Assembly (NCBI GenBank): GCA_016748015.1
Contig: JAAOMT010000675.1
Span: 620,001-684,000, forward strand
DNA length: 64,000 nucleotides
From: Geosiphon pyriformis uo1
Taxonomy: Eukaryota; Fungi; Glomeromycota
Direction of reading: 5' to 3'
Of the stretch, positions 1 to 48,586 are shown piece after piece; position 1 is the stretch's first letter; each line of letters begins with the position of its first letter. Under the pieces are notes generated by a model. The model did no database searches and was not told the origin of the DNA. It saw only the letters and a list, made by a program, of their open reading frames with translations. The position numbers and the translations under genes were made by a program.

Positions 1-731
1 ACAGACAAAAATTAAATAATGAAACTCGGCTCATATATATCTTTTTGAAAGAAAATATTCAATATTTAAATACCATGTTCAATCTTGCAGCTTTTTAGGG
101 TTTCTATTTAAAGACTCCTTTGTTTCTTAGTCATTTTGAGCTGAACGAATCTCATATTATCCACTTAATTGTAGCTTTGCACAAAGGTAAAGGTGGCCCA
201 AGAAAAATAATCTGTTTCAAGCTTTCACGCTATTAGGAAAATCGGAGTTTGATGATATCATATTTATAGGGTTCATTTCATTTAGAATATGAAAAGTGAC
301 TTTAGAGTAATTATATATGTTTTCTCTAATCAGAAAACATGGAAAATTCTAAGTTATGTAAAAAAAAAAAAGAATTTATAAATAATTATTATAATTATTT
401 TAACTTATTTAGAATCTTGGAAAAATTTTATCGATGTGAATTATTAATATTTTCTGACAAAAATTTTGCATTGTTAAAATTGAGCAGGATTTAAAAATAA
501 ATATCAAGTTTTTTTTATTAAAAAAGATTTTAAAAACAACTTTTAAAGTCTTATAAAAGCAATAATTAAAATCATATCTAATTATCATCTTGAGTCTCGC
601 AATTTAAATAATAATTAAGTTTTCTAGCTTCTTATATTGATTTATTTCAAAAATATAAATCTGGGTGGTTCATTAAATTGCAATGACCACAATTTTTTGG
701 TTTCAGAGTACGTTTTCGTGAGGCTAAAAAA

Positions 732-2437
732 ATGTGGAAGCGTTCAAATATCAAATATATCATTACAGCTTTATTTCTCTTATTAGGAATTCACTACTTA
801 TTCACGTTTACTCACCCAGAAGGTTGGATTTCTTCAAATACTAAGCTTGACGCTTTCTTGGAAGACGAGAAGATATTTCCCCTTTCATCTACCAAAATAC
901 CAATTACAGAAAAGAAAAAAAATGAGCTGAATTATAAAGAACATTTACCTATCAGTTCCATCAATAACTTTACAAACACAACTTGGGCAAATGGTGCATT
1001 TGTCGTTTTAGTACGTAACAGTGACATTCATTCGTTACGTGCTGCCATGCGCGAAGTAGAAGATCGATTCAATCACAAATATAATTATCCGTGGGTATTC
1101 TTGAACGATGGAGAGTTTTCAAAAGAATTTAAGGAACTTTCTAGTGCAATGACTAAGGGAAATACAGAATATGGTATGTTTAAGATTCTCAAACCAACAA
1201 AGCTAACGAAATCCCATCATATTCAAAATTGAATTTTTGCGGTAAAACTAGGGGTAATTCCTAAGGAGCATTGGAGCGTTCCTAGTTGGATTGATTATGA
1301 CAAAGCGAAGAAAATTTTTAAAAATATGGCTGAAGATAAAATTATATATGGGGGGAGCGAATCTTACAGGCATATGTGCAGGTTATTCCCAGAATTATGA
1401 ATGAATATCTTTTGATTTTCATAGCACCTTATTTCTTTAATTGATCTTTCAGGTTTGAATCCGGTTTTTTCTTTCGTCATCCGTTGTTGCACAAATATGA
1501 CTATTATTGGCGAGTGGAACCTGGTGTTCATTATTATTGCGATATTGACTACGATCCTTTTATATTTATGAAAAAAAATGGGATGAAATACGGTCAGTTT
1601 TTTGTGGCTTGTGGCTTACATTCTTGACTTAAACATGTTTGTAATCTGTCATGCTCATTTTTAACTCCAGGCTGGACGATCTCCTTATACGAATACGAAG
1701 GCACTATTAAAACACTATGGTCAACTGTCAAGAAATTCATGAAAGAATACCCGCAATATATTGCGAAGGATAATTATATAGACTTTATTTCATCTGATAA
1801 AGGGGAAACCTTTAACTTGTACGTGGTGTACTTCCAAAGCCTTTTAATTTTTTGAAATGAATAACTCTAAAATCTATACATTCACCCTGCTCTCCTTATC
1901 AGATGTCATTTTTGGTCGAATTTCGAAATCGGTGATTTGAACTTTCTTAGGAGTGAACAATATTTAAAGTATTTTGAATTCCTAGATCAAGCTGGCGGTT
2001 TCTTCTACGAACGGTGAGACACTGTGGGAATTCAGTTTTTTTTATACAATATCTTATGATCATTTGCCTTCATCAGATGGGGTGATGCGCCCGTTCATTC
2101 AATCGCCGCCGCGTTGCTTTTGGAAAAGGGGAAAATTCATTTTTTCAATGATATCGGTTACAAACATGAACCTTTCATGCATTGTCCTACCGACAAAATT
2201 ATACAGCTCAAGTGCCATTGCAACCCCGATGAGAGTTTTGGTGGGCAATTCACATTTCATTGATATTTTGATAAACCTTCGAAACTCATTTTATATTTAT
2301 TTTATTAATTAATAGATAAAAATGGATACAGTTGTACGGGAAGGTAAGCGTCTTTCATAATTCGTCTTAACAAAAATCCACTACTAATGTAATATGGTAA
2401 TGTTTTTTTCAGATGGCATGAAATCATTGGAAAATAA
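732..2437 (+). CDS. Glycosyltransferase family 15 alpha-1,2-mannosyltransferase (KRE2/MNT1/KTR family), type II Golgi membrane protein; 8 exons: 732-1173, 1252-1381, 1453-1592, 1671-1818, 1903-2013, 2077-2240, 2316-2343, 2413-2437
   Basis: All introns are GT..AG and the frame stays open across junctions. N-terminal TM anchor. GT15 motifs: [79 protein letters not shown]. Ends in TAA. Confidence 0.95.
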
Positions 2438-2682
2438 AACAGTCTCACTATCTAATGTATACATGATAATAAAAATAACCTAATAAAAAAAAATCACGAG
2501 AGGTTTTGGAAGGTAGAATCTAAAATCAATTTTTTAATATAGGTTACTTTTTACAACATTATGCCTTATAATCTTCAGTCTTAACTATGAGCTCAAACTC
2601 TACACCTTGATATCCAAACATGGTTTACCATTTCTGTAAAGGAGCAGCTAAGGCCAAGTTGGAATACAATTGCGAAACAGAC

Positions 2683-3869
2683 TCAGTCACCTGATCCTAA
2701 CTGTTGACCTCTTCCCCAATTATGTCCGCGCATAGGGGTCGGAACTTGTGGTGAAGGGGGAATGTAAACCCTCCCATAAGACGTTCTTACCCCATTTGGG
2801 TTAGTATTTAAGGGAAAATATCTATATAACCATTGTGGAGTCTTAATAAATCGAGATCCTCCGGTGGCCGGATATAAATCTTCCAGAAAATAATATAGAT
2901 GTCCGGATATTAGACCAATGACCATTGCCCATGGGATACCCCGCGCGGGTTGTGCGACGTATTCGTATATCAACAAGACAAAAGGGAGATATACAGCCTG
3001 AGATACCCAAAGAGCCAATGGTTATATAGTCTGAAGAAATCAAGAGTAACCATTGATTATCACAAAATATTCACCTTGAAATTAAGTCCGAATAAAAATG
3101 TCACTATCATGTCTCGGTTATGTTGCGACCATAAATATACAATCGCCATTATCAGCGACTTGTTGTATAAATATAAAGGCATGAATATCGAAGTGATCTA
3201 AAGTAAAAAATTGATGTAAATGGATAAATAGAGTCAAGTAAATGAAATGGAATGTCATGATTCAATTATGCAGTCAAATCTCAAATGACAATGAGATCAA
3301 CTAAATTTGATTATGATTCTTTTCATTTTATCCCTTCACCAGAACCAAACGACAGTTTGAAATAAATGCTTGTACGTTCGGGCAGAAGTAGGGAAAAAGG
3401 CTCCAACTCTATTTTGCCTCTTTCAAAAACTGTTGATCTTGGTATTATTATGTGATCCAAAAAGATAAATAAAGGATACAAGGATGAAGATTGATACAAG
3501 CAAAAGAAACCAAGCATAATCAGCAGTCTTTCCCGCAAATTTTGTGTTCTCTAAAATATTTGAATATCGATATAGAAAGTATAATTGAAAGATAAAATCC
3601 AATCCAATACGTTCGTAAAAGAAAGATGTATAAATTCGCCACAACTCTGGAAACGAAAACTATAAAAATTGAAGAAAATCCATAGTGAGCAACTTTTCAA
3701 TATGTATTTTGAACTTTCAACTTACTTTGAAAATCTGATCTGGTATGAAAATGAGATTGCTAGGGTCAACTAATAAAGCTCCCAATAACGTGGTTCCTGT
3801 AAAGCTGCTGAATAAAAATCGTGTACAAGGAGGTATACTGTTATACCAGGTAATTAGTTCTTGATTCAT
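2683..3869 (-). CDS. Derlin (DER1-like ERAD rhomboid pseudoprotease), ~253 aa; 4 exons: 3869-3726, 3659-3480, 3197-3075, 2997-2683
   Basis: MNQELITWYNSIPPCTR start; ELWRIYTSFFY (WR motif); YRYSNILE..F...ADY; VYLWSQ; GLISGHLYYFLEDLYP; C-terminal SHP-like WGRGQQLG. Confidence 0.93.
3198..3479 (-). other. U12-type (minor spliceosome) GT-AG intron, phase 0, derlin intron 2, 282 nt
   Basis: Donor GTATCCTTT matches the U12 5' splice-site consensus RTATCCTT. Candidate branch sites TACTTGAC (3240-3233) or TCCATTTAC. None of the other 18 introns in the window has this donor. Confidence 0.8.
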
Positions 3870-4086: not shown

Positions 4087-4749
4087 ATGTCTGTCTCTCA
4101 AATGCGCATGGTGAAGTCTAACACAAATATTTTATTTAATCCTATGTCCAGACCCAACCCTTTAAACCTAATTATAATGGCTCCCCTTGCAACGTAGATA
4201 AGCAAAGATGACGAAGTAGACGTTGAAGTAACATGGGAAGACCAACAACGTATAAATTCGTTTAGTAAGTTGAACGCCAAGCACTCGGACTTGGAAGAAA
4301 TCTATAATGCAAAAAAGGTATTGAGGCTATGGCATTATCTAACTCATTTTTCCCTCAAATTTCGAATTAATTAAAAAAATTCATTGACTGGAACTAGATA
4401 GAGAGAGAACTTATTGAGGATCTATCCTCGGAACTCGAACTTGCTGATGAGGATAAAGAAATTCCGTAACTTCATTTCGTTTTTAACATCATTATTTGCA
4501 AAAATTGCTCATTTTACCCATTTATCTATCGACTTGTAAAATAATTTAAGGTACAAAATAGGAGACGCGTTCATCTCCTTGACGTTAGAGGAAGTCCAAC
4601 AGCGAATCACCCAGGAATCTGAAGACCTTAGGCAAGAGCTTGAGAATTTGAGAGATGAAATGGTTGCTTTAATGCAAAAAATGAACGAACTCAAGGGTTT
4701 ACTATATGGCAAGTTCGGAAAAGCTATTAATTTGGAGAAGGAATATTGA
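4087..4749 (+). CDS. GIM3: Prefoldin subunit 4 (GIM3/PFDN4); 4 exons: 4087-4110, 4198-4317, 4398-4465, 4551-4749; missed by the ORF track
   Basis: Spliced translation MSVSQMRM-ISKDDEVDVEVTWEDQQRINSFSKLN...EDLSSELELADED..IPYKIGDAF...LKGLLYGKFGKAINLE. All introns GT..AG. Confidence 0.93.
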
Positions 4750-5203
4750 AAGAATGAGTATATGTTTTGAAGAGGGAACGCAGAAGAGTACAGATTAAGA
4801 AGTAAAGTAATTACAGGCAAGCAAAATTCTTAATTTGCTTCCTTATTTAATAGTTTTTGCAAATTAATGATAATTCGAGCCCGAGAAATTTGCACTTTGA
4901 ATTTTTCTAAATTACTAAACCCGAAAAATAGTAAAAGGTTTTATTTAATTGAACATTACGAGAATTTCAATACTATTATCAAGCGAAAACAGCTATAGGC
5001 GTGACCATTTTCATTTGGTTACGTTTAGTAATCTATTTAAAGGATTTAAAAACTAGGAGTGATATATACAAGCTTGTTTCAAAAAGCAAAATATCCATTG
5101 AAAATATTAATTTATGAGGATACGACCATATATTAACAGGGATTTCAATCAAAACCAAATTAACACCCTGAACCCGAGAACACCAATGAAGGAAAAATTG
5201 CTT

Positions 5204-8049
5204 CTACAATTCGTCTGTCAGATGTCGGAGTAACTTTTCAACATCCTTGACATTATCATTGTAATGTTTTGCTTCGGTTTGTTTTTTGCCCACGGTGCTA
5301 GTAATACTCTTCGGATGAGTTTCCTTGAGAAATGAAAAGACCGGCTCGTCCGTTTTTCCATCTCCAATGCAAAGGATGAAATCTACCCCGGATTGATCCA
5401 TATATTGAAAGTCCTTTAAGATAGCACGAACTGCAGTAGATTTGTCAACCAAAGCTGGGCGAACCTCGAGAGTTTTGTTCCCGAGAACAATCTGTAAAAA
5501 TTGCCCAATAATGGGATCAAATAAATTCCATTCTTAGCCGATTGGATTGAAAAATTCCTATTTGAACTAAGATAGGAAAACGCATGAGCGAAAAATAAAG
5601 CTCACCGACAAAGCCATATGACTCAAAACCTTTTCCAGATTAACTTGAAGTTCAGTTGCTTGCCAAGATCCAAACTCAGGATCGGCCATACGATAGTGCC
5701 ACGTCAGGTTGATTTCTTTCTCTTCAATGAAAGATCCAGGAGTCCTTTCAAGATAATGCTGGAATATAGGCCTGATGGCTTCTTTCCATGCTGGATCTAC
5801 TTGCTCTACTAATTTGTACCAGCTATTGCTTTCCTCTTTCAACGTCTTCCCTTCTGCCTGACAGTTACCAATAGGATCCACGTGGCCACGCAACGTTTGA
5901 GGGTGTTTATAAAAGCATCCATGCTCTGCAGAAAGACCTATTCCAGTGGACGAAAACCACTTGTCAAGATGAGAACGTCCCCGCCCAGACAAGATATATA
6001 CATATGTGTCTGGTTTTGATTGCAATTTTTTCAAAATAGAAATGATCGTGTCGCTGGGCTTGGCTAATTCTGGCAATTTGTGTGTAGTCGTCAAAGTTCC
6101 ATCATAATCTAATAAAATAATTTTCTTTTTTGAAGCTTTAGCTGCAGTCAAGGTTTTCTCAATACTCAAACGTGGTATTTGCATATTTTCTCTCACACGC
6201 TGATTAAAATAGAATAGATCAGCGCACGGCTTGCTTTAAAATAAATAATTCATTTGCTTATTTCAAGATTTCCTCTTACTCTCAGTTCATTAACAAAGCG
6301 TAGTCCCCAATAAGCAGCTGTATATTTAGTAACATAGCTGTAGAGCTTTTCATGATTCTTCGCTCTCAATTCAGCAGGCATCATCACCGCATCGTGAATG
6401 CCATTAGCGAGGTCTACGGTGTTCCATGGGTTGACGATGATTGACCCTAAATCCAAACGGGTTTTAATTGGTTTGATACTAGAGAGTGTAGAAAAACAAT
6501 ATTTTGGTTACCGTTCAAGGACTGGGCAGCTCCAGCAAATTCACTCAAAATCAAGACACCATGTGTTCCTTGTTGACAGGAGATATACTCATAGGACACT
6601 AAATTCATGCCATCTCTTGTAGATGAAACCAAACATACATCGGAAATAGCGTACAAGGCGACTAATTCCTCAAAGGCGACGGACTTATGCATGAAATGAA
6701 TCGGCATAAATTCTACTGTTCCAAATTTGCCATTGATTCTTCCAACCAGCTCGTTGACAACAGCTCGTAAATTTTGATACTCTTCTACATCTTGACGAGA
6801 GGGGACTGCCACCTGAACGAGAACTACTTTACCAATCCATTCTGGATGATCACTCAAAAAAACTTCCAAGGCATGAAACTTTTGCGGAACTCCTTTGATA
6901 TAATCCAAACGATCAACTCCTACAATGATTTTTATTCCTTTAAATTTCTCTCGTAAACTCTTTATTCTCTCTTGAATTTTGGGTTGTTTCATGCCCTAAT
7001 GCGTCGGACAAAAACCAGAATGTCAAACTCAGCAGGAAAACAGCAATTTTCCAGTAAATATCACTAAATGCTTACATCTGTAAACTTCTCAGGATCAATC
7101 CCAATAGGGAATGTACCAATCTGAACGTGCCTTCCCTCGAAATCTACGGCATTTGGCATTGTTGACAACCCTAGAATGCGTGTACAGGAGGAGAGAAAAT
7201 GTCGTGCATAGTCGTATGTGTGAAATCCAATTAGGTCACAGTTGAGCACTCCAGTTAGTATTTCCCGGCGAACAGGTAAAATTCTTAAAATGTTTGTGCA
7301 ATAATTATTAATGTCGAAAACAACGAAGAACAGTAAAAACTTTAGATCGGCCCACATACCGATATATTTCGCTACTTGGGAAAGGGGTATGCAAAAAGAA
7401 ACCAATCTTTATGTGCTTTTTTGAAGTCCCTATTTTCTCTCTCAGTAAACTTGGTAATAGCATCAAATGATAATCCTGTACCCATACCAAATCTCCATCT
7501 TTCAAGATATTGTTTATGGCATCTGCGAACTGATCATTAACTTTTTGATAAGCTTCCCAGTCCTGTTCATTGAATGAAATCTCGCCAGGGTGGTAATGAA
7601 ACAATGGCCACAAGATTGAGTTTGAAAACCCATTATAATGGCGATCAGCAAGTTCATCATCAATAAACACAGGAAGGCAGGAATGCTTTGCGAGTTCATT
7701 AGTGACATTTTTCCTTTCACCTTCGGGAACATTGATTCCTTAAATTGGTACAAATTGATCAAGTATTAACTTGCAGAAGTCTTATAAAGAGGAGATATAA
7801 TACTGGAAATGAGACTTTATAAAAAGTTTACTTCCAATAAAATATGATCTTACCAGGCCATCCTATCCAAGTAAATGACATCATTTTCTTGAGGCCACTT
7901 AAAGCACTCACTAAACCACCCGAGGACATTTTAAAATTATAGTCGCTGCCATTTTTTGATATGGTCATTGGAAGACGGTTAGAAACTACAAGCAAACGAA
8001 GATCTGCTTCCCCTGAGGAGCTTTGTAATGAATTATTTTTTTCAGGCAT
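5204..8049 (-). CDS. TPS1: Trehalose-6-phosphate synthase (GT20, TPS1-like) with C-terminal HAD trehalose-6-phosphate phosphatase domain; 7 exons: 8049-7854, 7738-7360, 7283-7076, 6995-6512, 6446-6280, 6199-5606, 5491-5204
   Basis: Synthase motifs VVSNRLP, SSGGLVSAL, HYNGFSNSILWPLFHY, QDYHL, HTPFPSSEIYR, GVDRLDYIKG, RDGMNLVSYEY, SEFAGAA. Phosphatase motifs LDYDGTL, SGR, SAEHG, GDGKTDE. All junctions GT..AG and in frame. Confidence 0.95.
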
Positions 8050-8250
8050 AATTCCCTTTTAGTAACTAAGGTAGAAGATTTTACGTTAGATAATTCAGCT
8101 AATGATTGGAGACCAAAATGCCAGGAGAGTTTTATTGGACTTTTCCATTATAAGAGGGTTGCGTACAAATTGGTTCCGAGAAAACCTAAGTTAAATAATT
8201 GAATCTTGGATTGTCGAAGAACGATATTAAAGGCAAGTAAATTTGAAATG

Positions 8251-10897: not shown

Positions 10898-13800
10898 ATT
10901 TTTTTTATTTAATTTAACAAGTACAGCTCAATCACTACCTAATTACATAAAACCAAAAAAGCTCTATATTAAGTATGGCTTATGTATTTTTTACACATGA
11001 CCAGCCACTCAAACCAGTCAAGGTAACACTATACATTTAGAACACCAGACATAAGAAAATCACATAGAAAACCAAACCACAAACTATGTAATTGAGGATT
11101 AAGACCAAAACATGTATGTATATCCAGCTTAATATTAAAACTATTAATCATGTTATAAGACTAGACCAAAAACAAACCAGACACTAGCAGGATAATGGAT
11201 TTATCGCATGGCAAAAGACTATGCTTCTTATAATAGGCTCTCAGTTTGGCCCTTGGCATCCATACACCAGACCTATGACTTTTAGCAAAATAGTGAACCA
11301 GATCAATGATCAAAGCTCCACTATTCGAATTATCTCCTAACAAACCTCTTGCCTCATCCACCCATTCCTTCAACATGAAACCTTTGGACAAAGTTATGTA
11401 TAGATGATCTGAACTCATAGTTTCATGAAGTAAGCAAACTACTATGCTACAAGTGGCACATGCATCCAACAAAATCGTCCAATCCTTGATGGCATCCAAG
11501 ATTAAGTCTTTACAAGTGTTAGCATCGGAAACAAAGACAAATGAGTGATCTGAATCTTCTAAAAGACCATATAGAATGCACAACACACTAGAATAACCCA
11601 AATTATATAACTTTTTCCTCTTGGCCATAGGCAGCCAATGGTGCAAAGTCTTTATGAAATATGAATGGAGTGTTGCAGTAGCAGAACCTGTGTAACCAAA
11701 TCTAACATGACTGTTCACATGCCATATATTGAAAGTGTGATGCTTGTCTATCAGGCTGCTAAATACTCCATTAACTATGTCACTTGCATACTTGGATTCC
11801 CAACCAACAAAATTAACAGTATTATAAAGTCTACTGACTATATAATAAGCATTGTTAGAAAGGGGTCTGTCTTCCACACTGAGAAAGTAGAGTGATGTCT
11901 TGATAAGAAGAATGAAATTAGAACTAGTAGCAGCTCTGACAAAAAAATCAGTGTGCTTATTGTCAACAACACTAGTGTGGCCTCTTACTTTGTTCTAGAT
12001 AACCAACAGATTTTTTGAAAAAATAGTTTCATGAACAAACTCACACTCCATCCAGCATTTTTTTCTAAAATCCAGTCTGTGGTTTTGTAAAACCATTGCA
12101 CATAGATCCAGCAAAGCCTGATTATCAGTAAACAATACCACTAAGCTATGATCAGAAACACAGTCCAAGGCAAGAGTGATGGCTTGCATCTCTGCAAGCA
12201 TGGAAGACAGTAAACTGAGAACCCTAACACAAACACCAACATTAGTACTAGAAAAATAAGCAGCAGTGCCACCACGAGCACCAAAGGAACCAAGATCTTT
12301 AACCGAACTGTCGGTATAAACATGTATAATATCAGAATCCACTTGTTCTAGACAATCTTTGACATAACCATCATTACATAAACAAAATTTTAAAGAAGAA
12401 AGCTGTAACAAGATACTACTATCAACCAGACCACCAGATTCAATAAAATTCACAAGAAAAACAAACCAACCAGGAATTGGTCTCTTAGGATTCAGTCTTT
12501 TCTATCTATGAAATGAATTTCACGTGAAACACCTGCCATGATGATCCAAAAGCTGGTTTACATAGATTATCCCAAACCTTTTCAGCGAACTCACAATCTT
12601 GATATAAGCATTTAGCCCAAGAACATCTGCAGCAGCAACACTATTGTTTGCATAAAACATGTTTATTACACTACTTCCCAAAGACAGACCATATGATAAA
12701 AGTGTGTTCAAACAAGTCACTGAATATGTCCACAGAATTAGCAAAGGACATAAAATTGGCCAGTGAATTTTTGGCCAGGAGCTGCTTGAAAAGAACCAAG
12801 TTATATAAATCTGGGTGATATAAGGCCTCATTGGAAAAATCTTTGGGAAGATTAGCCTTGAGTTTCAGATCTTTTCTCAACAATCTGTTCCATTTTTCAT
12901 ATATATTAGTAGGGACATGACTAAATTAAAGCTTATAATTAATAATAGGCTGCAAAACAACAGAAACTAAATACAAGAATTGTTTATCAGAAACCACTTT
13001 TTTCAGAACTAAGTTCATAAAAAACTTCAAGTTCAAATGTGCCTTAGTAATACTAAAACAAGAAAGACCCTTAGTTGACAGAAAAATGTCCAAGTATCTA
13101 TGAGCCTTATATCTTTTTGCTATTATGATATTTGATCCACTAATCACTAGCTGAGGATTGGCAACCTTTCTGTTGATCAATATAGCAACTGTCTTGTCTG
13201 TGTTTATGGAAATGTCATTAATATAAAAAAACTCACTAGCAATATCCAAAATACTTTGAGTTGCAGCCATGCTGTTCCCAATCCAGATTGTGTTATCCAT
13301 AAAGGCCCCAGTAGCCATGAAGGACACCTTGCTAGTCCTAAGATTTAGCTTGCCAGTGCATGTAAAAAACCTGGATTCCATTCTATAATCATATGTATAA
13401 CCAAGCTTTTTAATCTTACAAAGCAAAAGATCATAAAAAATTCTCTACAACAATAGAGAGAAAACTTCACCTTAGTCAAGTCTATTATGTACCATGTATC
13501 TGGATATGAGCCCAAAATTTGTCATAACATGGTTCATTCGACCATTGTGAATATTCTCAAAAAACTTAACAAAATGAGGACATATTTTAATTCTGGTTAG
13601 ACAATTCTTCAAATAATGTCATCCAACAGAGTCATATGCCTTGCGCATGTCCTGTAGCACCAACCACACTTTTCTGCCATTTTTCAAAGCATTTTCAACT
13701 ATTGAGCCAACAGCAAAAATTGGAGAAAGAGTAGACGTGCCTTTCAAGACTAAGAAGTTATCACTTCGAAGAACATCAAACTTACTACATGTCAAAGAGA

Positions 13801-29730: not shown

Positions 29731-32700
29731 CTACACAGATATACAAACTGAAACTGAACTGCCTATACCAGAAAAGAATAAACATGGTTTACAAAAACCA
29801 AAACGAACACCCATAGTCTCAGTGATGCCAAGCAGCTTTACAACACCAGCAGAAAACCCCGAAACCAAACCAGAGACTGAAACAGGTGTTGAACCATCCG
29901 ACGGAATCAACTTGGTCTTCTCCATGTAAGCACGATGCTTAGCACAAACCAACCAAACACCATCCCTAAAGGCAAGACTAAGAGAGTGCACAAACTTAAC
30001 CATCTCTAATTCTGCAATTTTGGGATCACGGAACGCAGAAACAGCCTTGCAAAACCAATCATTAAACACAAAACTCTTGTATAGTGCCATGAACACAGGG
30101 GAATCAGAGGCACAAGATGACAAAAGCTGCATTACAACTGACAAAAAAAGCAACAAACCAGTAAGAGCCTTCCAAAAAGCCACATGAGAATTCAAAATCT
30201 GACTACAAGCAGAATTGTCAACCTTACAAAAGAACACATGGTCTGAAGACTCCACATCACCACAATATAAACACAGCACACTAGGGTAATATATATTATA
30301 AAGATGCTTCCTCACAGCAACAGGCAACCAGTGATACAGAGCCTTCATGAAATAGGTATGAGCATTAGCCAAGGGCCTGCTGGTGGAGCTGGTGGCCATG
30401 TGTAAGTCAGGATGCCAGACCAAAGAAGAGCGGAACCAGTCAACATTAAAAAGCAAATTATTCCTTAAAAACTTAGCACCAGAACCAACTTCCCAGCGTG
30501 CACGACAAATTGACTGGCAAATATCACGAACAAAGTGTTTCAAATTGCCCAAAACCACACCACTGTCAGCCACCAGAAAATGTTCATTCAAGTAAGGATG
30601 CAGATGCCAACTGGAAAAAAAGGCAATGCCAGCAATCTCATCAGCATGTTCATTACCAGAAACACCAGAGTGACCTTTGACCTTGTGCCAACAAACTCTC
30701 AAATTTTTACTACAAATAACATTAGCAATATGCTGATGCTCAACCCAACACTGATTGTGAAAGTCAGGACACACAAGATTCAATTCTGATTCACAAGCAC
30801 TCAAAGCTGACTGACTATCAGAAAACACGCAAATGGAACAGGATGAAGGGACATACTCCATGGCCAACGCAATAGCCTGCAATTCCACAAGGATAGATGA
30901 CATCAAGCCCAATACTCCAACTCCCAAACCCAAACCAATGTCCTCAAAAAAAACAGCAGCACCAGCTCTACATTCAGCAGTACCCAAACTTCCCAAAGAT
31001 CCGTCCGTGTAAACAGACAAGCTACCAGAAACAACCTAAGAAAGACGACCACAAACAGAAGCATAATCAGCAGAACCAAGAATATCTCGATAAACAACAC
31101 TATCTGAGACAAGCTGATCATTAAAAGGGAGAGAAGCACCATTGAGAAATGCAGCAGCAAGCCTGAACCATTCCGGAACGGGGCCACGGGGGTCCAGTCT
31201 TTTCCAACGCTTGAAGATATACCAGTCAAAAATGGCGCCATGATGATTACAAAGTTGATCTACAAAGACAACGCCATACCATCGGAGAGAAGGAAGGAAC
31301 TTGGAAAACCTAGATTCACCTAAAACAGTAGACATAGGTGCACTGCCACTAGACCGAAAGGAACTAACAAAAGATTTACCCAAAGACAAATTGCAGTCAA
31401 GAAGAATACGGACCAAGTCTGCTAAAAAGTTGTTGGAAGTGCTAATATTAACATGAACAGGAGAATTCAATGGATAAATAGGATGCCAACACTGAACTTG
31501 CAAGTCATGAGACCTGTGAGAAAATAAGCAACCCAAGATCCCATCAAAGTTTACAAAACTGATGAGAGAGGCCATTTTACATTCAGACTGTACCTGCGAG
31601 AAAGATTTCAAACCATAAAATGAAGGGTGGTACAGCGTATCATTGGGAAAATCAAGCAGAAGACCAGATTTAAGCTTCAAGCCCTTGCAAACCAGAGCAT
31701 CCCACTTGGCACAAACACCAACTGATATAAAACTAAATTGTGTCCGATAACTGATTATGGGCTGAAGAACCACCAATACCAAGTATAGGAATTGTTTATC
31801 TGAAATAGTCTTCCTCAGAACCAAATTGACAAAAAAGCAAATGTCCAAATGTGCCTTAGCCAAACTCGACTTCGAAAAACCCTCAGTTGAAAAAAAAATA
31901 CCCAGATACTGATGAGATTCCCCCTTTCTGGCAATGGAAATGGGAGAGCCGTTAATGGAAAGGGAGGGACTGCTGACTCTGCTATTGATGGGAATGGCCA
32001 CTGTTTTGGTATTGTTGATAGAGATATCATTGATCTAAAAGAATTCACTGGCAACATTGAGAATATGCTGAGTAGCAGCTTGACTGTTACCAACCCAAAT
32101 TGTATCATCGACAAAAGCACCAGTGGCAAAAAAGGAAGAACGTCCAGCCTGAGTCTCAGCACACCCATTTTTAGAGATAAAGTACGAATTAAGCCTATAT
32201 CCACACACACTCTCCTGATGTTTGACTTCACACAACAAAGGATCATAGAAGATGCACCACAGAAGAGGGAAAAAAACTTCACCCTGATCTAAGCCATCAT
32301 ACACATGATAACCACCAGTCAAACTGAAATCCATCATTACCCGATTGGTGCAACCCTTATGTATGTCACCAAAGAACCAAATAAACTTGCTGCACATCTT
32401 AATCCTGACCAGACATTTCTCAAAATGCTCCCAGCCAACTGAATCGTAAGCCTTCCTTATATTCTATAACACCAGCCAGAGTTCACGGTTCTTTTCCAGA
32501 GCATCCTCAATTATCAAACCAATCGCAAAAATGGGAGACTGAGTAGTTGTACCTTTCAAAACTGAGAAATTATCCCCACGAAGAACATTGAAAATGCTGC
32601 ATGCAGCAGAAATCTTATCAAAAAGAACCTTGAAAAGAATCTTACAAGTTGTTTTGATCAAAGCAATAGGATGTGTGTTCATCAGAACACCCTCTCACTC

Positions 32701-34419
32701 ATAAGGCTTGGGAATCATCGAAACCCAGGCCTTTTTCCATGGGCTGGGCACCAATTCACCAGCCAAACAAGAGTTCAAAAGTACCAACAACATCTCCAAG
32801 ACAGACCTATCACAATGTTTCCAAAGCTCATTTGAGATACCCAACAGACCAGCAGCTTTGCCATCAGGAAGGACGGAAACCACCCCAAACAATTCGTCAA
32901 AACCAATCAGACACATTACCTCTGAGAAAGCCTCATCAAAAACATACTCCAAAGGCCTATATTGGCGACACCATTCGCTTGACATATCATCAACCACCCG
33001 ATGCTTCCTAGTCCACTCCTCCATGATTATGTCCACCTTGCTTTTAACCTGATCAGGCTCCAAAACTAACTCACCATCAACAACCAAGTAGTTAAGCACC
33101 ACCTTATGAAATGGGCGCTCCAGCACACTCCTTATTGTATGATCTTTATTGACCTCAAAGCTCTTCATCCTCTTATCTATGGCTGATCTAATGTTGGTCT
33201 CCTTGGCGATCTGAGACTCAACGAGCTTAGATGCACGATATGATTTCCGAGCACTTGAGAGAGCAGAAAAAACATGACCAGAGTCCATACCAGAATCTAC
33301 CAGATTCCGAATGACTAAAGCCTTAACACTGTCCAGTGAGGCCCAACAATCCATGAAAGAAAAAAAACCAACAATATCTCCCTCATGTGACACCTTGAAA
33401 ATCTTAGAAACCAAAAGCTCCAATTTGTGAAACTTTGAGAATTCCTTGGAGAAAGGTCTATCAAAGTCCTTGAACCATTTTTTTTTGAAAATGCCATCTG
33501 CCGAAAGCACCATGATCTCGCGAATGACGTCCCACATCACATCCAAATCAGAGAATCTTACAGTGGTGGCAAACTTATCTGAGAACATTGCTGCATTGGC
33601 CAAAGTGGCACCCCTGAAATTATCCCATCTACTTTCATCAGCACCCCTAATGCTAAACTTCCACTGATCCCTATTTGTCTGTCTACAAAGAAAATTCAAA
33701 TGCACATCCAAAAGCCCACCCAAACCCACGGACACACAAACCGCTTGATGATCAGTATCAAAATACTCACTAACATCCAAAATGTCTCGGTTTACTATTG
33801 CATTGACCAAATTTGATGAAATGAACACATAATCAATAGTCTTGACAACACCCCTTGAATTTTTCTAGGTAGGACACTTAGCCAATGGATTCTCCACCAG
33901 AGAATTGACCAAACCCAAATCCAAACACTTCTTAAAATTAGCATACCTGCGAGAGCCATCTTCATTGAAATCACCACCCAAAACAACAAAAGAAGACTCG
34001 TTTACAGTCTCAGCTATCAGGGAATTGACCTCGCCAGCTTGAGAGAAATGTGTTGCCAGAGAAGCACCAGCATAAAGCCCCAAAATTGATACAGAGAGTT
34101 TGTTTTTAAAAAGCATCTTAATCAAGAGTAGCCAACCAGGCACCTCAGAAATCTTACACACATGGTGAGCCAGAGAATTGTTCACAACAATAGCTATACC
34201 CGAACCCAGATTGCCAGAATCTTGACCTGAGGTAAAGACTCGAACACCATTAAACCTAGTTGCAATCCATAGACAGACCTTGCCCTTCAGCTTGGTCTCG
34301 GTAATGATAGAAATCAAATTGTTCATATCTTTGTGCCAACGAATGATATCTTCCTGTTTCGCAGGATTGTTCATACCTCTTATATTACATGTGGCAATTT
34401 TCCAAATTAAGTGAGTCAT
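29731..34419 (-). pseudogene. LINE copy 2 ORF2: APE endonuclease, RT (FVDD), RNase H, C-terminal Cys/His finger
   Basis: IATCNIRG, ITETKL, GGDFNE, DTDH; GLDQGEV, GAFVDDT, YLGIF; YTDGS...ELQAI...SDSQS...KVKGHSG..GNEHAD; CLYCGDVESSDHVFFC. Confidence 0.93.
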
Positions 34420-36371
34420 TGAAAAGACAGGGAAACTGACAAACCCGAACCAGAGCACAGAATGTTTAACTTATCCAAAACCAAACCAACTGAGGCCTTC
34501 AAAGCAATCAATTTTGTTTCTAAACCACCCACTTTGGCAGTGAGAACTTTGGAACTACTAGAGCTGAGCTCAACAGCAGCATCATGAAAGACAGATGGAA
34601 GAGTACCAGACGAGACCAAAGCAGTATCCAAAATTATATCAGAAACCACATCAGAAGACAAAGTTTCAGAAACAACAGAAAGAAGGCTCAAAGAAGGGGT
34701 TACCACAGAAACCAAATTAATAGATTCCAGTTGAGCCAAAATGCCAGAAATGCAATCAGTCAAAAGCTCCAAAGAGTGCTCTAAAATTGCCAGCTGGTCA
34801 TTCAAATGAGAAATGGTAGGAGAGACAGTTGCCATTGAAAAAGGAACTGAACCAGAATGCAAGCCAGTACCAACCAAACCAGAGGAAATCATACAAGAAG
34901 GAGAGCCACCAGCAACCTGGGCCCATGTTTTACCACCAAGTGAGACTGGACAAGCGACAGGAACTGACTTCTTCTTATATATCTCAGCTAGACGAATCCG
35001 ATCTTGCTCAGAAACCACCCTTCTTCCTCGAACACCAGAATATTCACCCAAGGAACAGTTGACCATAACATGACCAAATTGTTTACAACGAATACAACTG
35101 GCCAAAGAGAAACCAGCCCAATGCAAACTCACATTTTTGAAAACTGGAATGGTACCAATAGCAGCCAACTTGGATGCCTCATCACCAAAACAAATTACAG
35201 CACATCTATCACGAACATACGAACTAGGATTACGGCCGATATAACAAGTCTTCCCACCATATGATTCCAACAAACTGGAGAGGTCATGAGCATTGGTGCC
35301 AACTGGAAGAGTGTAAAGCAATGCCTGATGCTGATCTCTTGACACTCACGTTTGTTTATCAATATTTGCCTTTGCCATGTGAACAGAATCCTTTCCCATA
35401 AACACAGACCATCTAGCTGTGACCAAATCAGCCATCTCAGATGATTCATATTCCACTAGGGCCTTTTGCCAAAGACTAATAAGCTGCACTTTGATTGAAA
35501 TGATCTTGCCAAACTTGGAGAACACTTCTTCAATTGCCGATTTGGGAAGATCCACTGGGATTTCCTTGACAATCACTTCCCGATCTGAACAGACACTTGA
35601 TTTTCTCAGATTATTATTGACCAAAATTTTCTCACAGATTGCCAATTCCCTAGCCTTATTTAAACTAATTTCAGAAGTAAATGAGGATCTGATGATCCCT
35701 GAAAATTTTGAGGGAGTTGAGGCTCCCCCAAACCCATCAACACGATAAAAAATTTTTTTCAAACTAATCATTTTGTCATTATTAGTTTTGCCAGGAACGG
35801 CAGATAGCTCAATATCTAATGCAAACAATTTTGATGAATTAAAATTCTATTTCTCTGGTGCATGTGACCAGATTGGAGGAAGGTAATTAGATCCAAAAAA
35901 TTTGGGACTCGAGAGAGACAAAGTATCCTCACCATCACTTGAAACATTGAAAGAAAGAGGTGGCGGCTTACTGTTCAGAACATAGGTGCGGGTACACGTC
36001 TTCCTTGGCATGGCATCATTTATGTTATCGTCCAAACCCGAAACATCCGACTCTGCATAGCAAGTTTCCTTAGCAATGACGTTTTCCATATTATCCAAGC
36101 CCGAGACACCACTCATACTGTTCACTTCGCTGTTGACTTTGCTAGCCCATGATTGCCTAATGTTAGATCCATCACCACTTTTATCTATAACATTCGAGAC
36201 ATCAGCAGATGACTCTACCAATCCGTCAACTGCCACAGGTTTCTTTGGCTTCTTATAGGACGCACTGTGAGAATGAAGACCAACCGAGCACTTATTTTTG
36301 ACACTAGACCAGGTCCCCAACCCAGCTGAAACAGACCCAGAACCACCAGCAGCAAAGCCCACCAGTTCCAT
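34416..36371 (-). pseudogene. LINE copy 2 ORF1 (gag-like): Ser-rich N-terminus, RRM, CCHC knuckle, C-terminal coiled coil; two premature stops
   Basis: Same-frame fragments 36371-35847, 35828-35346 and 35345-34416; VFSKFGKIISIK (RRM); CIRCKQFGHVMVNC. Confidence 0.9.
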
Positions 36372-47745: not shown

Positions 47746-48586
47746 TATTACAAGTGATTATTTGAGGTTTCAAAGCAAATAACAAACCTGTAACTTGGTG
47801 CTCAATTAATATACTGATGTTGGTTTCTGATGATTTTGGTTATCTGAAGGTTTGGTTGAGTTCTTTGTATAATAGACAGAAATTTAACTAATAGTTTTAT
47901 CCATAGCTTCCTGAAACCGCAGTTTTGTCAATTTTTTTTTTAGTGTAATGGCTGGTAATCCTTCTGGTAAGATATCCTCAATTTTAAGTGTTTACTCTTA
48001 TTCCTGGGTTTTTTACCAGTGCTATATCCTGATGTCAGTACCTTCATGTGTAAATTTTTTTAATCAAGTTAACAAAACAACAAAGAAAATAAAGCAAAAA
48101 AAAATAAAGAAATAAGCCAAGGCAATTTACACATTAGTATTCCATCAATAGCTGTGATCAAGAGCTATTGTTCCAGTATGATTAAGTATCAATTATTATC
48201 AACATAAAATGTTGATAGTGAAAAATAGATTAAGATAGTGAATAATTATTTATTGATATTTGTGATATGGAAAATTGCTTAGATCAAATCTAAACTAAAA
48301 AATCTGTCTTTTTTTTTCTAATACTACTGCTATATATACCTAATTTATGTTCTATGAGATCACTTACATTTTTAAGTGATGTGCTATGATTTTTTGAACA
48401 ATGCTTACATTGCTAAGCAATGTGCCCTAATTTTCTAATATTGCTTTACATTGTTGAGCAATGTGCTGTAATTTTTAATATTGCTCCATATTGCTGAGCA
48501 ATGTGCTTATGTGTTAACTACTACTCTCTTATTGGTCTACTATTTTCTATATCTGTTTTCTTTATAAGTAACATTATCTTCTCTTT

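Follow-up and report, generated by a model that had tools for sequence, protein, structure and literature searches.

The second intron of a derlin gene of Geosiphon pyriformis is spliced, is likely of the minor (U12-type) class and likely hosts a box H/ACA snoRNA related to snR43 and snR100 that is predicted to guide the modification of rRNA; taken as a whole, we consider this reading probable. Its central part, that the intron carries a box H/ACA snoRNA of the snR43/snR100 family, is held with high confidence. The RNA family is already known, and what is likely new is its minor-intron host and a predicted third target. Coordinates are those of the window, which is the whole 64-kb stretch of DNA analyzed, and nt numbers count from the 5' end of the intron.

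The derlin gene lies on the minus strand and consists of four exons, three of which match the Pfam family DER1. Its parts are as follows:

3726..3869, minus strand: derlin exon 1, coding part from the ATG, from translation and the X1 contig; alone without a Pfam match
3480..3659, minus strand: derlin exon 2, ending ...TADYAWFLLLVSIFIL in phase 0, from the X1 contig; DER1, E 1.9e-13
3198..3479, minus strand: derlin intron 2, 282 nt, GT-AG, likely U12-type and very probable snoRNA host, from the joint 3197/3480
3075..3197, minus strand: derlin exon 3, from the X1 contig; DER1, E 9e-9
2683..2997, minus strand: derlin exon 4 through the stop codon, from the X1 contig; DER1, E 1e-9

The intron is precisely absent from one contig of run X1 (282 nt, GT..AG, minus strand), and the same contig also lacks the two other introns of the gene, of 66 and 77 nt. 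Run X1 is listed as 'RNA? (probably DNA)', yet this contig is without all three derlin introns; the run consists of assembled contigs in which the intron itself is uncovered, may be the source of the window itself, and says nothing on snoRNA expression. The original prediction described the intron as much longer than the others of the stretch, and this was borne out against the eight introns checked, the two of derlin and the six of the adjacent TPS1 gene. Since the latter measure only 65–115 nt, the derlin intron is long for its region, and in the explanation preferred here the extra length would be due to its RNA cargo. The trehalose-6-phosphate synthase (TPS1) gene occupies positions ~5200–8050 (minus strand) with six introns of U2-like donors, and its product shares 99% identity with a protein of Geosiphon pyriformis, the next match being from Ambispora (78%). 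Other neighbors were judged by look: a small spliced gene head-to-head with derlin (~4088–4750, plus strand) presumably encodes a prefoldin-subunit-like protein, a multi-intron gene at ~676–2450 (plus strand) presumably a Kre2/Mnt1-type mannosyltransferase-like one, and long ORFs at 11164–11994 and 29734–35345 (minus strand) are taken to be non-LTR retroelement-like (RNase H- and endonuclease-like).

The snoRNA was recognized by the Rfam model S_pombe_snR100, which matches 3397–3222 with 31.2 bits (E 4.4e-5 in a 2-kb search, 1.4e-3 in the whole window) and is the top of the two Rfam matches at E ≤ 0.5 in the 64 kb; the Rfam model snR43 matches at the same place with 19.1 bits. Both scores fall under the Rfam gathering cut-offs (80 for snR100 and 60 for snR43), and the element is therefore filed as a diverged snR43/snR100 homologue and not as a member of either Rfam family. 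Its features are the following:

3331..3394, minus strand: snoRNA hairpin 1, with lower stem 3394–3390/3335–3331 and upper stem 3381–3375/3351–3345, from the minimum free energy (MFE) fold, Rfam, model R1 and compensatory changes
3382..3388, minus strand: 5' guide strand CUUCUGC of the putative pseudouridylation pocket, from target pairing
3336..3344, minus strand: 3' guide strand UUCUGGUGA of the same pocket, from target pairing
3323..3328, minus strand: likely H box AAAUGA of the form ANANNA, 16 nt off the pocket and thus within the expected 14–16 nt
3256..3316, minus strand: putative hairpin 2, AU-rich and weak, z -0.15
3253..3255, minus strand: candidate ACA box, placed by inference; alternative at 3217–3215

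The suggestion that the intron might host a non-coding RNA, loosely H/ACA-like, is hence supported in substance, with a different hairpin 1 (nt 86–149) from the one first drawn and a better-placed H box (nt 152–157), the ATAAAA named originally (3331–3326) lying 13 nt off the pocket. Hairpin 1 is part of the MFE structure with pair probabilities of 0.68–0.97, AAGGGA forming part of its lower stem, and it encloses between its two stems the internal pocket that is expected in the 5' hairpin of an H/ACA RNA; on its own it is modestly stable (z -1.96, 12/200 shuffles). The pocket strands agree with the S. pombe consensus at all 20 of 20 pattern positions. In the protein-free MFE the H box lies in a helix, and 6.9 kcal/mol are needed to free the boxes and the pocket. 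The 3' part is far less recognizable: profiles built from the 3' parts of homologues (26, 10 and 16 sequences) found no match in the intron, the GGU of the homologues' second pocket is absent from it, and the match to model R1 ends at position 104 of 167 (this model, which is partly circular and whose structure string is one column off, lends weak support). The ACA at 3255–3253 is the likeliest end of the RNA, which would then measure ~145 nt. Two further matches are taken as chance or probably so, namely a C/D snoRNA match at 3017–3111 (E 0.69) and a short hairpin matched by Rfam mir-2059 at 48448–48504 (plus strand, E 0.13).

The closest known relative is S. pombe snR100 (RF01449), the best Rfam match, which has the same pocket strands UUCUGCC / GUUCUGGUGAAGG in its first hairpin followed by an H box; the Geosiphon copy differs in its score (31.2, where the cut-off is 80), its diverged 3' half and its intronic location, H/ACA RNAs of S. 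pombe being independently transcribed, as work by Li et al. in 2005 is said to have found. The orphan S. pombe H/ACA RNA AJ632018 is presumably snR100 itself. S. cerevisiae snR43 (RF01256) shares the same pocket and the predicted targets 25S Ψ966 and 5.8S Ψ73; against its model the Geosiphon copy reaches 19.1 bits where metagenome homologues reach 41–60. Vertebrate intron-encoded H/ACA snoRNAs resemble the element in architecture and in their release from a spliced protein-coding intron, and SNORA9 is, we assume, the human guide of the equivalent LSU site. AJ632018 was mapped to the snR43 family in a study whose main text holds no occurrence of Glomeromycota or Rhizophagus (PMC5824354).

Homologues were sought in metagenomes with a pattern made of the two pocket strands, for which 119 of ~140 loci were listed. 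Both flanking stems are present in 34 of the 119 listed loci, and a second-hairpin/ACA signature, which the pattern did not require, accompanies 32 of these 34 and 2 of the 85 others (36 loci had at first been picked by eye, and L062 and L082 were removed as lacking the boxes and hairpin 2). Five of eight homologue loci scanned were matched by snR43 or snR100 with up to 59.8 bits. In an alignment of 26 of the 34, from which near-duplicates (L051, L066, L077, L117), long-insert loci (L031, L090, L121) and L089 were left out, 99.4% of stem cells are paired and four of seven pairs show two-sided changes, far above slid controls; the covariation comes largely from two subgroups, and that the pocket strands do not vary follows from the way the pattern was built. 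An ANANNA box lies at 15–16 nt in 21 of 33 homologues and further out in three, with none within 20 nt in nine. Most fungal homologues have, ahead of an ACA/AUA box, a second pocket (UUGAGAA...GGUU), e.g., L039:725–882 (minus strand), so that in many fungi the snR43/snR100-type family probably guides with two pockets. The second pocket of L039 pairs over 13 bp in the LSU, not at the snR33 site itself but at the U that precedes it by three bases; the yeast list, in the part of the source available, has no Ψ at that upstream U (PMC5699541). Among individual loci, L089:1492–1640 scores 59.8 bits with snR43, slightly below the cut-off, with derlin undetected in the locus and a tRNA ~0.7 kb away, and L041:1492–1642 and L055:223–378 belong to the same subgroup as the derlin-hosted snoRNAs with no derlin nearby, which suggests relocation or a different host. 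In viral contigs the pocket pattern gave nine loci, none of them homologue-like, while the LSU motif gave one divergent fragment and the SSU motif none.

The class of the intron was judged from its splice signals:

3471..3479, minus strand: donor GTATCCTTT, of U12-type consensus, from sequence
3233..3241, minus strand: best U12-type branch site TTACTTGAC, branch A at 3234, agreeing with TTCCTTRAC at 8 of 9 positions

The 5' splice site matches RTATCCTTT perfectly, GTATCCTT occurs only twice among the 5,850 GT of the window, and all eight control donors (six of TPS1, two of derlin) are U2-like. The branch A lies 36 nt from the acceptor with no AG between and a U-rich tract before the AG, and the only candidate closer by, at 19 nt, has three mismatches. 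A short branch-to-acceptor distance, a tendency of the class and not part of its definition, is thus missing here (36 nt against an optimum of 11–13 nt; PMC3584512), and because of it the minor class is called only likely. The earlier assignment of derlin intron 2 to U12 is on these signals likely. In Rhizophagus, a relative of Geosiphon, 205 minor introns are known along with all four minor snRNAs, the main text of the same report leaving Geosiphon unmentioned, and Ascomycota are without minor introns (PMC10639083). Human DERL2 also carries a U12 intron, a likeness that extends to the presence of a minor intron in a derlin gene; the accessible part of that source mentions no hosted RNA (PMC6800510). 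In humans, no annotated ncRNA genes appear to lie in U12 introns (PMC4066798). Searches of the open literature turned up no snoRNA described from a minor intron, though subscription papers and snoRNA databases may hold such a case, and the portions seen of PMC11460701, PMC4394429 and PMC8351944 added nothing on U12-hosted snoRNAs or on the 18S site treated below.

The host intron appears to be old since in a distant fungal lineage the homologue is carried at this very derlin position by an intron with U2-type signals. Derlin is the host in 8 of the 34 homologues, and all seven of these with a visible donor share the position and phase 0 of the window's intron, their donors following a T(A/P)DY+13 exon end as it does. 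These seven donors are U2-type (GTACGT, GTACTA, GTAATT, GTAATT, GTAACA, GTAAGG and GTACTT), and CTAAY stands near the acceptor in the six derlin-hosted introns resolved by script. As the eight loci come from a single lineage, they count as one observation; this lineage is known here from metagenomes alone, and its nearest named derlin is that of an ascomycete (40%). The other 26 homologues have no derlin in the sequence at hand, which in eight of them extends to flanks of 300 nt only. The exons of L039 were used for the search because the homologous derlins are hardly picked up by tblastn with those of the window (no match in one search, one at E 9e-7 in another). The comparison of two lineages suggests an old host intron, once U12, that may have been converted to U2 with the snoRNA kept, the direction of the conversion being what we infer.

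That the snoRNA is real and the major spliceosome now removes the intron, the U12-looking donor being merely kept, is unlikely. Such a reading can draw on the best branch match at 36 nt with its U-rich tract and AG-free zone, and on the U2-type orthologous intron of the other fungal lineage. It has to face a donor context, CTT|GTATCC, that is poor for U1 and perfect for U11, the difference from all eight control donors, a branch motif closer to the U12 form than to CTRAY, and the retention of minor introns in Glomeromycotina (PMC10639083). Still less probable is a decayed remnant in which hairpin 1 survives, hairpin 2 and the ACA have degenerated and no stable RNA is made. The unrecognizable 3' half, the lost second pocket and the z of -0.15 for hairpin 2 are what a remnant would leave; the pocket strands identical to the S. 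pombe consensus throughout, two intact stems and a canonical H-box spacing are not, and the S. pombe snR100 model likewise has no pocket in its last hairpin.

A structural switch acting on the minor splicing of derlin, through masking of the donor or through an outer helix concealing the branch site, is very improbable. The original prediction had the intron fold almost end to end into two long hairpins, one arm of which could mask the donor, and the sequence elements it named (donor GTATCCTTT, TACTTGAC, ATAAAA, ACA and every arm that was looked up) were all located where it put them. The fold itself was not supported: that of the whole intron is at the level of dinucleotide shuffles (z -0.77, 45/200 as good; z -0.84 on repeat), and the first hairpin as drawn is absent from the ensemble and, when forced, gives -41.0 kcal/mol against -51.7 (a penalty of 10.7). 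The second one (nt 152–240) does occur in the MFE, at a level expected by chance (z -1.06, 31/200 shuffles). A plus-strand fold with z -1.36 was also taken as chance. The helix between AAGGGATA and the donor has P ≤ 0.002 with the exon flanks included or omitted, although forcing this register costs only 2.8 kcal/mol above the MFE (-48.9 kcal/mol, as against -45.3 for pairing with nt 11–20); the AAGGGATA arm pairs instead with nt 86–90 as the lower stem of snoRNA hairpin 1 (P 0.75–0.97). A local hairpin at 3479–3452 (minus strand) pairs donor nt 1–6 with nt 22–28, its masking being at shuffle level (70/200). Since the helices it needs are of near-zero probability and donor accessibility is that of shuffles, the donor-masking switch is unsupported, and two populated competing folds, above chance and conserved, as a switch would require, were not found in the intron. 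The other form of the switch relies on one predicted element:

3414–3403 with 3237–3226, minus strand: predicted outer helix around the snoRNA and over branch A, from the fold; not conserved

This helix (12 bp; nt 66–77 with 243–254) covers branch A with P ~0.9, and the masking was matched by 4/100 shuffled 5' flanks, in a test picked after the fold was seen. As a flank duplex the helix is ordinary (56/500), and it is not above chance in five of five homologous introns. Finally, there is next to nothing to recommend the extra length as a MITE or other repeat insertion or as chance AT-rich structure. The shuffle-level fold of the whole intron and the retroelement-like ORFs of the window would suit it, against which stand a single copy within the 64-kb window with no inverted self-match, the kinship with a snoRNA family and the fact that distant fungi have the intron at the same position.

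For the snoRNA reading, which we retain, targets were scored on rRNA contigs of other eukaryotes (4,457 U in four loci, the 18S being a non-fungal one, L137). The best pocket pairing among the 4,457 U is at LSU CAGGA[U]AGCAGAAG, with 6+7 pairs (13 bp), equaled anywhere by 1/200 shuffled guides, and the next distinct site is 5.8S GUGAA[U]UGCAGAA with 3+6. The first pocket thus fits, in the rRNA of other species, the 25S Ψ966 and 5.8S Ψ73 sites, as is characteristic of a snR43-type guide; both are guided by snR43 in yeast (PMC5699541). With the register shifted by one base the best pairing becomes 18S CACCAGG[U]CC, with 8+4 pairs (12 bp) in the non-fungal 18S, reached by 9/200 shuffles. The case for this 18S site as a third target of the pocket appears evenly balanced. 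S. pombe has Ψ at all three equivalent sites, and its 18S Ψ1231 sits in an exactly matching context (AGGΨ, ΨCCAG) (PMC4605285). From 17 to 35 °C, S. pombe 18S Ψ1231 rises from 22% to 68% and 5.8S Ψ76 from 44% to 90%. Position 1211 of C. thermophilum 18S lies 23 nt past m1acp3Ψ, the spacing also found in S. pombe; its 76% Ψ calls are to be read against a high background, as 68 sites were called in that 18S (PMC12723226). For S. cerevisiae no Ψ is listed at the equivalent 18S site in the part of the source available (PMC5699541), and the UGGUGA extension on which the 18S pairing depends is missing from the Rfam snR43 consensus. Among the matches listed from the open literature no guide assigned to Ψ1231 was found; one may be given in subscription papers, in snoRNA databases or in the supplements to PMC5824354. 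Hairpin 2 gave no convincing target in six registers on the same rRNA set, and a snR33-type site reached through an alternative register was rejected (3+5 bp, not the top match, no box at the right distance).

Trimming of an H/ACA RNA from a debranched intron is an established pathway, and we infer that it would operate here. The minor spliceosome, to go by the donor, would excise the intron, and after debranching the RNA would be trimmed to ~3397–3250 (~145 nt), a stretch that H/ACA proteins bound at its H and ACA boxes would protect. Its pocket would pair 6+7 at the LSU site, equivalent to yeast 25S U966, and 3+6 at 5.8S U73, and by a shift of one base may pair 8+4 at the 18S site equivalent to S. 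pombe U1231, the second hairpin probably being structural only. A more extended proposal is offered tentatively, as possible and rather less than likely: a U12-intron snoRNA whose host intron has been carried since before Glomeromycotina split from the other lineage, where it would have become U2 with the cargo kept, with one pocket guiding three sites in three rRNAs, 18S Ψ1231 included, and slow minor splicing tying rRNA modification to an ERAD gene.

If a minor intron does host this snoRNA, snoRNA biogenesis can draw on U12 splicing, and the orthologous intron of U2 type offers a natural comparison for a change of class in which the cargo stayed; where a lineage loses the minor spliceosome, an intron with a hosted RNA may be more readily converted than deleted. 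If the triple target holds, S. pombe snR100 would be the missing guide for the temperature-dependent 18S Ψ1231, and its loss should remove 25S Ψ998, 5.8S Ψ76 and 18S Ψ1231 of S. pombe. The rise of 5.8S Ψ76 and 18S Ψ1231 with temperature could come from the weaker, secondary pairing of both sites with a single pocket. A minor observation concerns the rRNA contigs: most of the 53 listed LSU-primer-site matches in prokaryote assemblies (L130–L182) are eukaryotic rRNA contigs, by look fungal, plant, animal and protist, present as contamination, and about 500 such stretches are estimated.
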